From an uncultured Candidatus Saccharibacteria bacterium (lineage in GTDB: Bacteria; Patescibacteriota; Saccharimonadia; Saccharimonadales; AWTP1-31): 64,000 nt of DNA. A model generated the notes under the pieces. It made no database searches. It worked only from the letters and a program-made list of their open reading frames with translations, and was not told the DNA's origin. A program made the position numbers and the translations under genes. Below, one piece after another: positions 43,427-48,184 of this stretch (within the stretch, counting starts at the first letter, position 1; the number at the start of each line of letters is the position of its first letter). The stretch spans positions 118,357 to 182,356 of the forward strand of contig CAZVTA010000001.1 of the NCBI GenBank assembly GCA_964629815.1, given 5' to 3'.

Positions 43427-43891
43427 ATGCCTCGAAGAGATTATTTAGGCGAAGCCCATGGCCAGAGGCAGATTTTTGCTGCTGGAATAAAAGAAGGTCA
43501 ACGATTGGGGCGTGAAAGAGCGGATGCTGCTCATCATATCAGTTGTGCCGATGCGTATATTATGGGAGAGAAAGAATTTGTTAAGGATGATGGTAGGGGT
43601 GGCTATCGAAGATGGGGTAATGCTTTGTTTGTGGCGCTTGGATTTGACCTTTATAGTAGTTTAAGAAATCACATTGGAACCGTAGAGTTTGAAGAGCTTG
43701 AAGCTCGATTAGACGTGGTTATTGATTTTGTAGTTCAGGCGGCTTTGGCGGTTGAGCGTGGTGAGATAAAGCCAACACGAGGACAGCGTCATGCAGGAGA
43801 AACAGCAGAAACATTTCCGGTACCGACTGCAGAAGTTCTTGCTCGCTTAGGATTTGAGGCTCAGCCAGCAGTTGGGGATGTAGATGGCTAG
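43427..43891 (+). CDS. hypothetical protein inserted between atpA and atpG
   Basis: 154 aa (MPRRDYLGEAHGQR...). It starts 4 nt after the atpA stop and its stop overlaps the atpG start by 8 nt. No recognised domain. Confidence 0.5.
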   Translation: MPRRDYLGEAHGQRQIFAAGIKEGQRLGRERADAAHHISCADAYIMGEKEFVKDDGRGGYRRWGNALFVALGFDLYSSLRNHIGTVEFEELEARLDVVIDFVVQAALAVERGEIKPTRGQRHAGETAETFPVPTAEVLARLGFEAQPAVGDVDG

Positions 43892-44753
43892 TCGACAGCA
43901 GCTTAAAACACGCATTGGCTCGGTTAAAAATACCAAGCAAATTACCAAGGCTATGGAGCTGGTTAGTGCTAGTAAAATGCGCCGTGCCCAAGAGCTTGCT
44001 AATCGGAGCCGCGAATATCGAAATATGGCACGGCATATTCTGCTGCGACTCCGTGAATTGACCGACGTATCGAAACACCCGTTGTATGTGCAGCGTCCTG
44101 TAAACACGCGGCTACATATTGTAGTAACCAGCAACCGCGGGCTGGCTGGTGCGTATAACAGCAACGTACTGCGCCGCCTCACGACCGAACTGCAGGCCGA
44201 TAAAGACGCGGGTATTGCAAGCAAGGTTATTGTGGTTGGTAAACAAGGTGCAAAGTTTATTGTTCGGTTTGATGATGTTGAAGTATTAGCCGTCTATGCC
44301 GACTTCCCTGACCACCCGTCGGCCAACGATATTCGCCCAATTATGGAATCAGTCAAAGAAGCGTTTACAACTGGAGCAGTCGATGCGGTTGACGTGCTTT
44401 ATACCGACTACAAGTCAAGCATCAATCAAGAAGTAACCGCAGAACGAATTTTACCTGCTGCACACAGCGATACTGAAATTGAATCGGTTGAAGTTGTTGA
44501 TGTTGAGTTTGAGCCGTCGCCACAAACTGTGCTTAATGCCGTTACCGAACGACTTATCGAAGCACAGTTATCGCAGGCATTTTTAGAGTCGAGTGCCAGC
44601 GAACAGAGTATGCGCATGATGGCCATGAAGAGTGCAACCGACAATGCCAGCGACCTGATAGACGACCTAACACTTGCTTTTAACACAGCGCGCCAAGCAG
44701 CAATTACACAAGAACTCGCAGAAATTACCGGTGGTGTGGAGGCGATAAAATGA
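43884..44753 (+). CDS. atpG: F0F1 ATP synthase subunit gamma
   Basis: MASRQQLKTRIGSVKNTKQITKAMELVSASKMRRAQE. Confidence 0.9.
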   Translation: MASRQQLKTRIGSVKNTKQITKAMELVSASKMRRAQELANRSREYRNMARHILLRLRELTDVSKHPLYVQRPVNTRLHIVVTSNRGLAGAYNSNVLRRLTTELQADKDAGIASKVIVVGKQGAKFIVRFDDVEVLAVYADFPDHPSANDIRPIMESVKEAFTTGAVDAVDVLYTDYKSSINQEVTAERILPAAHSDTEIESVEVVDVEFEPSPQTVLNAVTERLIEAQLSQAFLESSASEQSMRMMAMKSATDNASDLIDDLTLAFNTARQAAITQELAEITGGVEAIK

Positions 44754-45043
44754 GCGGGGTGCATGTAACTGGCCAGGTAGGCGCTGATATTGAAGCATTG
44801 GTTGGAGATGCTAAAGCGGGATATGCAGAGGCAATTGACAAGTTGGCATCTGGGTACGTTTCTACTGTAGAAGTTCGTACAGGTCGGTTTGGTGGTTTTC
44901 GTGGTGCAGAAGTGGTCGTCGATGAGACTGCTAGGCAAAACGCAATTTCGTTGATTGAAGCTATGATAGGAAGTATTGTTACAAAAGCATACCATTCTGG
45001 TCGCCAAGCAGAGAGCCTTGGTCGTGCGGAGGAAGCAAAATGA
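44750..45043 (+). CDS. hypothetical protein (97 aa) inserted after atpG
   Basis: ATGA overlap with the atpG stop. Gly/Ala-rich, no recognised domain. Confidence 0.45.
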   Translation: MSGVHVTGQVGADIEALVGDAKAGYAEAIDKLASGYVSTVEVRTGRFGGFRGAEVVVDETARQNAISLIEAMIGSIVTKAYHSGRQAESLGRAEEAK

Positions 45044-45531
45044 GCCAGCAAGAACTTGGTTTTCCGGACTACGTAAGTCTCGAACGTTACCCACACGAGC
45101 CGATTGTTAAGGACATGGCCATAGACCTTGTGACTATTGCCGAACAAAAAAGCAGCCGGCTACCCCGCCGAGTACGTAAAGCATTTCATAACAATAAAGA
45201 TCTAATCGTCAAAGGTGCGCAGTGGTCAACGACAATCTTTGTAACAGGACAATTTGAGTACGAGTCCGACTTGCAACAGCCGGAACTGTTTAGTGAAGTT
45301 CATGCCGACGCGTTGAATGAACGTGTGCTAAGAGGCGCTCAGTATGTGGGTGCAGCAATAATGCACGACGTAACACGGACTATGCCGTTTCGTTATCGCT
45401 ATAATCCGATCGTTCGTATTGATGATAAAAGAATGTCAGTAGCAGATTGGGCCGAGAACGTATGGGCACCAAACTATACCAAACGTTTTGTGATGGCCGC
45501 AACAATGCATGATGCTCGGGAGATGCAGTAA
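45040..45531 (+). CDS. hypothetical protein (163 aa)
   Basis: ATGA overlap with the upstream ORF. No recognised domain. Confidence 0.45.
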   Translation: MSQQELGFPDYVSLERYPHEPIVKDMAIDLVTIAEQKSSRLPRRVRKAFHNNKDLIVKGAQWSTTIFVTGQFEYESDLQQPELFSEVHADALNERVLRGAQYVGAAIMHDVTRTMPFRYRYNPIVRIDDKRMSVADWAENVWAPNYTKRFVMAATMHDAREMQ

Positions 45532-46175
45532 TGGAAATGCGACACATGGTAATTGTGCACGATAGTCAGCATGGTGATGCGCCAAAAATTGTTAAAGCGT
45601 TTGCGAGTGAAGCCACAGAGGGTATATCGGTAAGAAGTTATACCGATTTGGTAGACCAAGATAATCCGCACAATGCATCACTCCGCGATGAGGCTCGTTA
45701 TGCTGACATTATCGCAATTCAGGAGTCACTGTTATATGGTAGAGGCAGGCCGACAGCTACGGTAAGGAATGCTTTAATGGCTTCAATTTTGACGCCTGCG
45801 AATCCGTCCACTAAAGTCGGGGTTTTTGGTGACAGTTATGATGTGCGAATGCTCGATTTTGATGAATTTATTGCGACAGCTACATTGAATAGAGGAAGCC
45901 GAAAAATGAATTTTCGGGGTGGTATAAAACAGGGCTTGTCCGACTTTGCTGGCGTCCCTGCACCGATGAGTCGCAAGAAGGTGCGTGATGTTATTCACAA
46001 CCAAGGTTTGTATCTTTCTCTTGCAGACGAGCAGGAACTACGCCTAACTGCAGAATTGCAGCGGGCCGAGTGGCGCAGAAGTGTTGCAAGGGCGTGTGGT
46101 CGGCTGGTAACGAGAAAGTTTTATGATGCCCTTGGTGCGGCTATAGATATTATTGACCCACCGACAAGAAGATAA
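45531..46175 (+). CDS. hypothetical protein (214 aa), possibly flavodoxin-like fold at the N-terminus
   Basis: TAATG overlap with the upstream [26 protein letters not shown] resembles the flavodoxin-like N-terminal strand-loop, but this is very tentative. Confidence 0.4.
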
Positions 46176-46197
46176 CGAGAGAAAGCAAGGAGATAAT

Positions 46198-47580: not shown

Positions 47581-47822
47581 TGGGCGGCGGTGTTACAGGC
47601 TATGGTAGTGACGAACAGCCAAGAATTGGTGTAGGTTTTGACGGCTTGCAACCTGGTTGGGCACAAGATCATGTTGAGCTTCGCGCAGCCTTCTCAGACT
47701 GGCTAACAGGAAAATATCCAGAAGCGCGCGTATTGGGTGATGTGGTGGATGCGCGTAAAGCGGCTGCTGAACTTGGGGAACTTGCTATCTCGGATGCAGC
47801 CGAAGGATTAAACAATGCTTAG
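47580..47822 (+). CDS. hypothetical protein (80 aa) inserted after atpD
   Basis: TAATG overlap with the atpD stop. No recognised domain. Confidence 0.4.
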   Translation: MGGGVTGYGSDEQPRIGVGFDGLQPGWAQDHVELRAAFSDWLTGKYPEARVLGDVVDARKAAAELGELAISDAAEGLNNA

Positions 47823-47878
47823 ATTCGAGATCGTTCAATAGGAGTGTAGTGATAGGTCGGGGTCTAACTGGTTAAATG

Positions 47879-47887
47879 TGGTATAAT
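47879..47887 (+). promoter_or_regulatory. possible internal extended -10 promoter element (TGgTATAAT)
   Basis: aaatgTGgTATAATag in the 98-nt gap upstream of ORF 47921 and atpC. Confidence 0.3.
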
Positions 47888-47920
47888 AGTATGTATAAGT
47901 TATAAGTTGAGAGGCACAGA

Positions 47921-48184
47921 ATGGTGTACAAAGCTGAACAATCCAGAATAGATCGTGCGCGAGCGCATGCACAGACTGAAGCCATGGATCGAGCTGGTTT
48001 TACTGGAAGCAAAGAGGAATATGCGGGTCTTGATAGTATTAATAGTCTGGTACAGCAAAGATTGGGTTGGCTCGCGACACATCCTAGACCAGGTGAGAGC
48101 GGAGGCGCTTCTCAAGCTGCAATACATCGTGAAAAGCTAAGAATTAGAGCCGAGCTAGATACTTTAAGACGCCCGGATTATTAA
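47921..48184 (+). CDS. hypothetical protein (87 aa) preceding atpC
   Basis: Ends 4 nt before the atpC start. Charged/helical, no recognised domain. Confidence 0.4.
   Translation: MVYKAEQSRIDRARAHAQTEAMDRAGFTGSKEEYAGLDSINSLVQQRLGWLATHPRPGESGGASQAAIHREKLRIRAELDTLRRPDY

Follow-up and report, generated by a model that had tools for sequence, protein, structure and literature searches.

The window analysed here is the whole 64,000-nucleotide stretch taken from contig CAZVTA010000001.1 of GenBank assembly GCA_964629815.1, which derives from an uncultured Candidatus Saccharibacteria bacterium. It contains an F-type ATP synthase (atp) operon in which six small open reading frames (ORFs), designated i1 to i6, lie between the genes of the F1 half, at the junctions of alpha with gamma (A-G), gamma with beta (G-D) and beta with epsilon (D-C). 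The same three junctions are occupied in many related loci by small ORFs of more than 100 families, and they are referred to below as slots. The six ORFs are regarded, as the probable explanation but one held with restrained confidence, as translated passenger genes in operon-embedded cassette slots and not as ATP synthase subunits. The atpAGDC block is among the most conserved bacterial gene arrangements, and no earlier description of the slots was found in open-access papers or bioRxiv.

Layout and coding status of the operon in the window

All genes of the operon are on the + strand, in the order atpB-E-F-H-A-i1-atpG-i2-i3-i4-atpD-i5-i6-atpC, with one ORF in the A-G slot (154 aa), three in the G-D slot (97, 163 and 214 aa) and two in the D-C slot (80 and 87 aa). 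This gene order had been proposed in an earlier note made from the sequence alone, and it was confirmed, with every ORF at its coordinates and the same layout in independent assemblies. Subunits were identified using Pfam on the window proteins and the precomputed Pfam matches of an independent assembly. The features of the operon are as follows.

39731..43422, + strand: F0 half plus alpha, with four compact internal junctions of 72, 8, 1 and 14 nt
39731-40582, + strand: atpB
40655-40921, + strand: atpE
40930-41484, + strand: atpF
41486-41881, + strand: atpH (delta), 131 aa, Pfam OSCP
41896-43422, + strand: atpA (alpha)
43427-43891, + strand: i1, 154 aa, alpha-gamma slot
43884-44753, + strand: atpG (gamma), 289 aa, Pfam ATP-synt, E 8e-88
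44750-45043, + strand: i2, 97 aa, first gene in the gamma-beta slot
45040-45531, + strand: i3, 163 aa, gamma-beta slot
45531-46175, + strand: i4, 214 aa, gamma-beta slot
46198-47580, + strand: atpD (beta), 460 aa counted from the ATG at 46198
47580-47822, + strand: i5, 80 aa, beta-epsilon slot
47823..47920, + strand: i5-i6 spacer, 98 nt, non-coding
47921-48184, + strand: i6, 87 aa, beta-epsilon slot
48189-48623, + strand: atpC (epsilon), 144 aa, Pfam ATP-synt_DE_N, E 2e-16

The i1 ORF begins 4 nt after atpA and overlaps atpG by 8 nt, i2 is bounded at both ends by ATGA overlaps (with atpG and with i3), the i3-i4 and atpD-i5 pairs overlap by 1 nt, and i6 ends 4 nt before atpC. The claim that every insert overlaps its neighbours or lies within 4 nt of them holds for most junctions but not for i5-i6 (98 nt), nor for i4-atpD, where the spacer is 22 nt with the atpD ATG at 46198, the start given by an independent gene call; an i4-atpD overlap would need the upstream TTG at 46153 as the atpD start. 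The insert load of 2513 nt is the largest real load found, with a median of 766 nt among relatives, and within the 64-kb window an overlapping chain of small ORFs occurs only in the atp operon.

A Shine-Dalgarno (SD)-like motif is present at -5 to -18 before all six ORFs, which show coding periodicity and an in-frame codon usage near that of the long genes of the window and better than that of the alternative frames. Over 6465 nt a Logan contig matches the window at 100% identity, with the same ORFs called, the exact i1 protein is found on 4 contigs from separate sources, and exact proteins of the six occur on up to four contigs. In a strain variant, the 264 nt of i6 carry 5 synonymous changes and 5 that are non-synonymous but conservative, with 5 changes in 95 nt of the adjoining spacer and 1 in 141 nt of atpC. 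The six ORFs are real. The comparison genomes are all metagenome-assembled and small ORFs are easily over-called, so that chimeric contigs, or spurious ORFs in non-coding spacers, had to be considered, and the earlier note had named such an artefact as its refutation. This explanation is hardly credible and is excluded by the identical arrangement in independent assemblies, by the recurrence of the pattern at more than 100 independent loci from many studies, and by coding signals, namely the SD motifs and periodicity together with the frame-specific charge and the ratios of non-synonymous to synonymous substitution rates (dN/dS) below 1 that are described below.

The delta subunit, noted earlier as unusually short, was confirmed at 131 aa; its match to the 172-position OSCP profile runs from 65 to 169, so that about 60 N-terminal residues are missing, and it is very basic, with an isoelectric point (pI) of 10.2. 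A short delta is found phylum-wide (median 130 aa in 61 loci), including loci with compact operons, and is therefore unrelated to the inserts. The i5-i6 spacer contains an extended -10-like sequence, TGgTATAAT, at 47879-47887, a possible internal promoter for i6-atpC, and the TATAAT hexamer is kept in the strain variant (TGaTATAAT) despite the 5 of 95 spacer bases changed; the site is missing from the promoter scan list because its -35 is poor. No structured RNA was matched by Rfam in the operon or the 98-nt spacer at E up to 0.1.

Occupancy and contents of the slots in related loci

The junctions were surveyed in 168 related loci. A gamma-anchored fetch supplied 80 loci from species-level genomes and another 80 from metagenomes, almost exclusively of Saccharibacteria, and all atp genes were mapped on them. 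A junction was scored as occupied when its gap was 150 nt or more, and loci (L numbers) were binned by gamma identity to the window. Two gaps were excluded as not being slot ORFs, the A-G gap of L065 (broken atpA) and the D-C gap of L014 (3.8 kb of ordinary translocated genes). Occupancy in three of the bins was as follows.

Gamma identity 62-70%: A-G 59%, G-D 83%, D-C 81%, F-H 12%, H-A 5%, B-E 0%, E-F 19%
Gamma identity 57-62%: A-G 49%, G-D 70%, D-C 55%
Gamma identity 38-50% (distant Saccharibacteria): A-G 6%, G-D 21%, D-C 10%

At gamma identities of 57% and above, A-G, G-D and D-C are occupied in 49-85% of loci; of the other junctions, F-H and H-A are occupied in 0-12%, B-E in 0%, and E-F takes an intermediate position (6-30% in these bins, 6-35% depending on the bin overall). 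All three F1 junctions are visible in 62 loci, with all occupied in 21 and all empty in 7. Slots at the three F1 junctions characterise the atp operon of Saccharibacteria across the clade. Variable spacing is also seen between certain other pairs of adjacent genes in relatives. A small E-F ORF of 48-57 aa occurs at L003:1320-1493, L006:7344-7502, L089:1991-2149 and L011:7032-7178, and there is none in the window, where this junction is 8 nt.

In L014 (L014:12306-16094), the ordinary genes that fill the 3.8 kb from atpD to atpC include a 231-aa gene that is found several kb 3' of the operon in L017, L018, L022, L033 and L035, which indicates that the F1 block can be broken by rearrangement too. 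In L065 (L065:8944-9940), a closed metagenome-assembled chromosome (OY969420.1), the alpha match is split, with the C-terminal part as a separate ORF, and a pseudogene, a frameshift or a mistake in sequencing could account for the apparent disruption of atpA.

The occupied gaps of relatives have the coding architecture seen in the window. Among 114 gaps at least 150 nt long, one forward frame runs without a stop through a median 96-99% of the gap length, compared with 47-62% on the reverse strand and 46% in shuffles (Wilcoxon p 8e-20), and an SD-like motif precedes 88% of 225 slot ORFs, 83% of atpA/G/D/C and 18% of random sites. The A-G ORFs start within ~4 nt of the atpA stop and mostly overlap atpG by 8 nt, so that the arrangement of i1 is common to most A-G inserts, and because of this overlap their last residue is almost always Gly. 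The G-D ORFs begin by ATGA on the gamma stop, and the D-C ORFs overlap the beta stop by 1 nt at their start and run 4-8 nt into atpC.

Iterative hidden Markov model (HMM) clustering placed 266 slot ORFs, with a median length of 98 aa and one to three per slot, in 172 families, 127 of them singletons; among multi-member families 29 of 30 are confined to one junction type. Hidden common ancestry of the families was sought in 435 hhalign comparisons and rejected, none giving a confident link (the best had 57% and 49% probability, both between same-slot families). Only 5 of the 150 largest non-redundant slot ORFs have a Pfam or PHROG match, 97% having none, and all five belong to the 23S_rRNA_IVP/bAvd-like family (PF05635), above the gathering score and with E down to 4e-39. 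The possibility that the inserts are split-off pieces compensating for truncated subunits was also rejected, the lengths of alpha, beta, gamma, delta and epsilon being the same with and without inserts.

The slot proteins are soluble, a transmembrane-like segment being found in only 6 of 225, and they are predominantly acidic, with a median pI of 4.6 and 87% below pI 6. For flank genes of 60-320 aa from these loci the median pI is 8.0-8.7, and 26-28% of them are acidic (p 3e-57 against the slot proteins). A net negative charge is found in 90% of the real frames and in 0-5% of other frames, reverse complements and shuffles, which are net positive, and acidity as a by-product of composition is thereby ruled out. 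Acidity is a selected property common to otherwise unrelated slot proteins.

The six window ORFs gave no match in Pfam or NCBIfam at E up to 1 and none in PHROGs or PADLOC, which bears out the earlier statement that no family could be recognised; they fail the sequence tests for all named families that were compared. In an exhaustive HMMER search of 1.84 billion representatives, i1, i2, i5 and i6 matched only themselves, i3 belonged to a small family, and the first ~115 residues of i4 belonged to a family of ~15 proteins of 112-141 aa. The i1 (pI 5.4), i2 (pI 5.3) and i6 (pI 9.3) proteins are orphans; i5 (pI 4.3) falls in a five-member family, all from D-C slots (L011, L017, L086 and L094), at 38-52% local identity. 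By charge, the acidic members of the six are i1, i2 and i5 and the basic ones i4 and i6, with i3 close to neutrality. The GC content at third codon positions (GC3) of the four orphans i1, i2, i5 and i6 is 0.29-0.36 (0.29 in i1, 0.32 in i2 and 0.30 in i6), compared with 0.43 +/- 0.04 for the window, of which i3 and i4 are typical.

The i3 protein has the invariant motifs YP..DM..D, P.L and WAPDY..R, and all seven traced members are directly 3' of atpG or, as in the window, within the G-D slot; from this placement i3 is taken to be a resident family of the gamma-beta slot. The N-terminal domain of i4 (i4-N, residues ~1-120) has invariant residues H10, D11, S36, T38, D39, N45, Q64, F99 and Y103. 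It is confidently predicted to adopt a three-layer alpha/beta/alpha fold with a parallel sheet, which gave TM-scores of 0.40-0.47 with flavodoxin-like, TIR and SLOG folds at about 10-17% sequence identity. The predicted domain is thus flavodoxin/TIR-like in architecture, and to this extent the flavodoxin-like N-terminus suggested earlier for the 214-aa ORF is supported by the model, but it has no sequence-family match: i4-N has no Pfam or PDB sequence-profile match, and its motifs (LHD..HGD, SFTD, NPHN and GxFDxxY) are its own. Profile searches of the PDB with the i3 and i4-N alignments found nothing, no relatives of i4 were found in metagenome and viral contigs, and a viral fold library gave only generic matches. 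The C-terminal ~90 aa of i4 match a separate 93-aa ORF in L081, which indicates a fusion or a split. All i3 and i4-N homologs with fetched context (in L081, L084, L086 and L087, and in L007, L012, L020, L022 and L043) lie in the gamma-beta slot of atp operons interleaved with other unknown ORFs; among traced homologs their occurrence is patchy and confined to atp operons. The interpretation in the earlier note is partly supported. The synteny comparison that it suggested gave a divided outcome, with the same slots occupied clade-wide and i3 and i4-N conserved, but with i1, i2 and i6 having no homologs.

Turnover of the slots and role of their products

The clearest case of turnover is provided by L006 and L089, in which the flanks are 99-100% identical and a 353-nt A-G ORF is present in L089 and absent from L006. 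In L089 the atpA stop TAA is followed after 4 nt by the ATG of an ORF that overlaps atpG by 8 nt, and in L006 the junction reads TAA-CAAAAC-ATG. A patch of 88-95% identity surrounds the indel, extending across atpF-atpG and parts of atpD-C. A second case of presence and absence is found between L118-120 and L124, at 91.5% nucleotide identity of gamma. These patterns fit replacement of slot alleles by homologous recombination through the conserved atp genes, and the same mechanism may be presumed for the lineage of the window, the strain-level presence and absence having been seen in relatives only. Saccharibacteria are naturally competent (PMC10633639).

Searches for a source of the cassettes gave negative results. 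Outside the atp slots, neither the window nor ~1.6 Mb of related loci contain paralogs of the inserts, and comparison of the inserts with the window by blastn and tblastx gave no match, so that an origin by local duplication or overprinting was rejected. No phage or plasmid match (tblastn, INPHARED and PLSDB) and no viral-contig match was obtained. The six ORFs and 150 slot ORFs contain no nuclease domain (HNH, GIY-YIG, LAGLIDADG or PD-(D/E)xK) and no integrase or transposase, and no tRNA, promoter or terminator of their own accompanies the slot ORFs. The alternative offered in the earlier note, that selfish cargo genes had colonised the operon, agrees with the presence and absence between strains of relatives but not with the lack of nuclease domains or of copies elsewhere in the window and related loci. 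Its premise of an essential operon is undercut by transposon sequencing (Tn-seq) of Southlakia epibionticum, in which all F-type ATP synthase components were dispensable (PMC10633639), and this dispensability is offered as a reason why the polar risks of insertion are tolerated.

As passenger genes, the slot ORFs would ride on the atp transcript, with the SD of each placed inside the 3' end of the preceding gene and with start/stop overlaps that fit translational coupling. Whole ORFs would be gained, lost and swapped by homologous recombination, using the conserved alpha, gamma, beta and epsilon genes as arms, and it is proposed that the operon tolerates the inserts because the enzyme is not essential in the phylum. 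The products would be small, soluble and mostly acidic, with i3 and the i4 N-domain as long-lived residents of the gamma-beta slot. The best guess as to function is that they have lineage-specific accessory roles and that, in a genome of small size, the atp operon may serve as their platform for constitutive expression. Both the expression of the slot ORFs and their role outside F1 are inferred parts of this account. The existence of more than 100 families, the patchy slots, the unchanged subunit lengths and the lack of counterparts in L081 indicate that the slot ORFs are not core subunits.

The nearest relative, L081, allows the rates of change of inserts and subunits to be compared. Identity between the window and L081 is 90% for beta, 86% for alpha, 78% for gamma, 65% for epsilon and 47% for delta, and it is 64% for i3 and about 34% for i4-N (z = 20.7). 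As dS is saturated in this comparison only dN can be compared, and it is 0.29 for i3, 0.31 for epsilon, 0.56 for delta and 0.63 for i4-N. None of i1, i2, i5 and i6 has a counterpart in L081, in which i3 lies directly 3' of gamma in the absence of i2, and the A-G and D-C slots of which hold unrelated ORFs of 122 and 120 aa. In unsaturated close pairs dN/dS is 0.19-0.35 for slot ORFs and 0.01-0.06 for gamma. In the pair L034/L105 gamma is 92% identical and the inserts are 33-42% identical, with insert dN of 0.52-0.68 and gamma dS of 1.09. Judged by these substitution patterns, the slot ORFs appear to be under weak to moderate purifying selection, some of them close to neutral.

Such rates bear on the improbable alternative that the inserts are benign filler, in which an open translated frame is kept only for coupling, so as to avoid polarity on the downstream atp genes, and the peptides have no function of their own and are selected to be harmless, that is, soluble, acidic and non-sticky. 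The ORFs span each gap from stop to start, most are orphans, some (as in L034/L105) are near-neutral, the changes in i6 between strains (3.8%) nearly match those in the adjoining non-coding spacer (5.3%), and the uniform acidity and near absence of hydrophobic segments would be expected of selection for harmlessness. Against this stand the dN/dS of 0.19-0.35 and the conservative nature of the i6 changes, as well as the invariant motifs of i3 and i4-N and the confident fold prediction for the latter. Useless DNA should be lost from streamlined genomes of ~1 Mb, whereas G-D inserts are retained in 70-85% of close relatives, and since empty, tightly coupled and evidently viable junctions exist, filler is not required for coupling.

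The earlier note had also raised the possibility that the slot proteins act as accessory, assembly or regulatory partners of F1 specific to the lineage, and this is considered unlikely. Examples would be hydrolysis inhibitors, or chaperones delivered co-translationally beside the target subunit, and their fast divergence would result from co-evolution with a fast-evolving enzyme in a reduced genome. Homologs of i3 and i4-N occur exclusively in atp operons and always in the gamma-beta slot, at gamma identities of 54-100%, their dN values lie within the range of the subunits epsilon and delta, the inserts are tightly coupled to F1 genes, and their common acidity suggests one type of interaction. 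In the predicted structure the invariant residues of i4-N are at the C-termini of strands, where such folds bind nucleotides or cofactors. The slot-specificity of 29 of 30 multi-member families points the same way, although it would follow automatically from recombination via flanking arms and is for that reason not evidence of function. Slots are patchy and empty in close relatives (L003 and L004 at G-D, L036 and L061 at all three, and 7 of 62 loci overall), the A-G ORF is present or absent between strains, the A-G and D-C occupants of the nearest relative are unrelated, the many families have no profile-profile links, and F1 subunit lengths are unchanged by inserts. There is also no homology to the AtpI, AtpZ, zeta, IF1 or Atp11/12 families. 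A more specific form, that diverse, fast co-evolving small acidic partners are each made beside the subunit to which they bind and tune or inhibit the ATPase, with i4-N as a nucleotide-sensing domain, is quite unlikely; it assumes an ATPase running mainly in reverse in a fermentative epibiont.

Several observations weigh against the passenger interpretation. Translation and coupling of the slot ORFs are deduced from sequence, and true F1 partners, too, would be expected to reside only in atp operons and to keep strictly to one slot, as i3 and i4-N do. The bias of the slots to the F1 half goes beyond what tolerance alone explains. The dispensability of the enzyme comes from one cultured oral species and not from the lineage of the window, whose atp genes are under strong purifying selection. 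No donor or source was found for any cassette outside atp operons or among phages and plasmids. The mosaic divergence of L006 and L089 could partly reflect chimeric assembly of co-occurring strains, both alleles nevertheless clearly existing.

Neighbouring genes, known systems and wider meaning

A free-standing HNH_3 homing-type endonuclease gene of 193 aa (38709-39290, - strand; Pfam E 2e-6, with a homing-endonuclease zinc-binding loop) lies a short distance upstream of the atp operon. It is separated by 4 nt from a CobA/BtuR-like gene (38135-38704) and by 25 nt from a glutaredoxin gene (39316-39570), and the junction that holds it is size-variable across relatives, with a median gap of 630 nt. 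Further upstream (36451-37540, - strand) a zeta-toxin/AAA_33-like kinase gene (37004-37540) overlaps a staphylococcal-nuclease-like gene (36451-37071), and this pair is adjoined by an Hsp20 gene (37608-38051). Directly 3' of atpC is a 350-aa gene (48679-49731, + strand) with a weak match to a cadmium carbonic anhydrase repeat (PF18484, E 2e-7, just over the cutoff), which is 65% identical to its L081 counterpart. With tblastn it was detected 3' of atpC, at 24-67% identity, in 20 of the first 80 loci. The best sigma-70-like site of the region (TTGAAA-16-TATAAT, 11/12) lies ahead of it at 48624-48651. A 73-aa ORF (50614-50835, - strand; pI 4.9), 2 nt from a 1132-aa helicase-like gene (50838-54236), is the only other small, acidic and tightly coupled ORF in the window. 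A novel candidate phyla radiation (CPR) pilus ('pam') operon has been described as consistently co-located with Saccharibacteria ATP synthase genes (bioRxiv 10.64898/2026.03.03.709456).

The endonuclease and the zeta-toxin-like kinase upstream are also relevant to a distinctly improbable alternative, namely that the slot ORFs are arms-race genes (immunity, antitoxin-like or anti-defence) directed at host, competitor or phage factors, parked as cargo in a constitutively expressed operon and replaced at a high rate under diversifying pressure. Living on Actinobacteria, Saccharibacteria are exposed to host and phage factors; small, soluble, acidic, hypervariable and quickly replaced proteins are in general the profile of immunity proteins, antitoxins and DNA mimics. 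This profile is, however, generic, and no match to a Pfam immunity family, PADLOC model or PHROG was obtained for the six ORFs, no cognate toxin or defence genes are adjacent, and none of the pairs measured has a dN/dS of 1 or more or gives any indication of positive selection.

Among known systems, turnover hotspots flanked by core genes are like the slots in having different, often unrelated genes at one position between conserved flanks and near-identical strains polymorphic for presence and absence inside a divergent tract. In the slots variable content was likewise found between conserved flanks, with a recombination signal in the flanks of one pair of metagenome assemblies. The slots differ in lying inside one operon for a stoichiometric enzyme and in consisting of tiny co-directional ORFs that overlap the flanking genes, and they resemble a miniature turnover hotspot that is intra-operon, translationally coupled and confined to the F1 half. 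Phage morons, like free-standing homing-endonuclease genes, are again small ORFs wedged between syntenic genes with a patchy distribution, and the presence and absence between strains with co-converted flanks that is expected of homing endonucleases was observed in relatives (L006/L089 and L118-120/L124). The slot ORFs are without the separate promoter and terminator that are typical of morons; they also have no phage or plasmid homologs and no nuclease domain, with a PHROG match only in the Avd-like group.

The 23S_rRNA_IVP/bAvd-like four-helix-bundle family (PF05635; PHROG label 'Avd protein of DGR') occupies the same atp slots in several relatives, and no other family was found at two different junctions. 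Its genes are loosely spaced (17-57 nt) and not overlapping, and the six window ORFs are not members. The positions of these genes are as follows.

D-C slot: L010:3963-4337, L053:3617-4009, L069:12139-12507, L163:7920-8315
A-G slot: L039:1315-1524, L112:491-886, L160:4548-4943

The small proteins known to be associated with F- and N-type ATPases comprise AtpI/UncI, AtpZ, AtpQ/AtpR (from N-ATPase operons), zeta, AtpTheta, IF1, the epsilon C-terminal domain and Atp11/Atp12; these are conserved families, usually encoded upstream of atpB or elsewhere and not among alpha, gamma, beta and epsilon. The slot ORFs are like them in being small proteins genetically linked to atp genes, exclusively so for i3 and i4-N, but differ in having no sequence or profile similarity to them and in being hypervariable and dispensable at the strain level.

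For annotation and synteny methods, these results mean that a contiguous atp operon is not a safe assumption in Patescibacteria. The i3 and i4-N families are two new conserved domain families that are strictly associated, by genomic position, with gamma and beta. As cassette slots, the F1 junctions would be a natural system in which new or foreign genes are accommodated in an operon without breaking it, and exchanged via conserved flanks, in naturally competent ultra-small bacteria. The finding would be much more important if the slot proteins bind F1, since they would then constitute a new modular regulatory layer on one of the most conserved enzymes.

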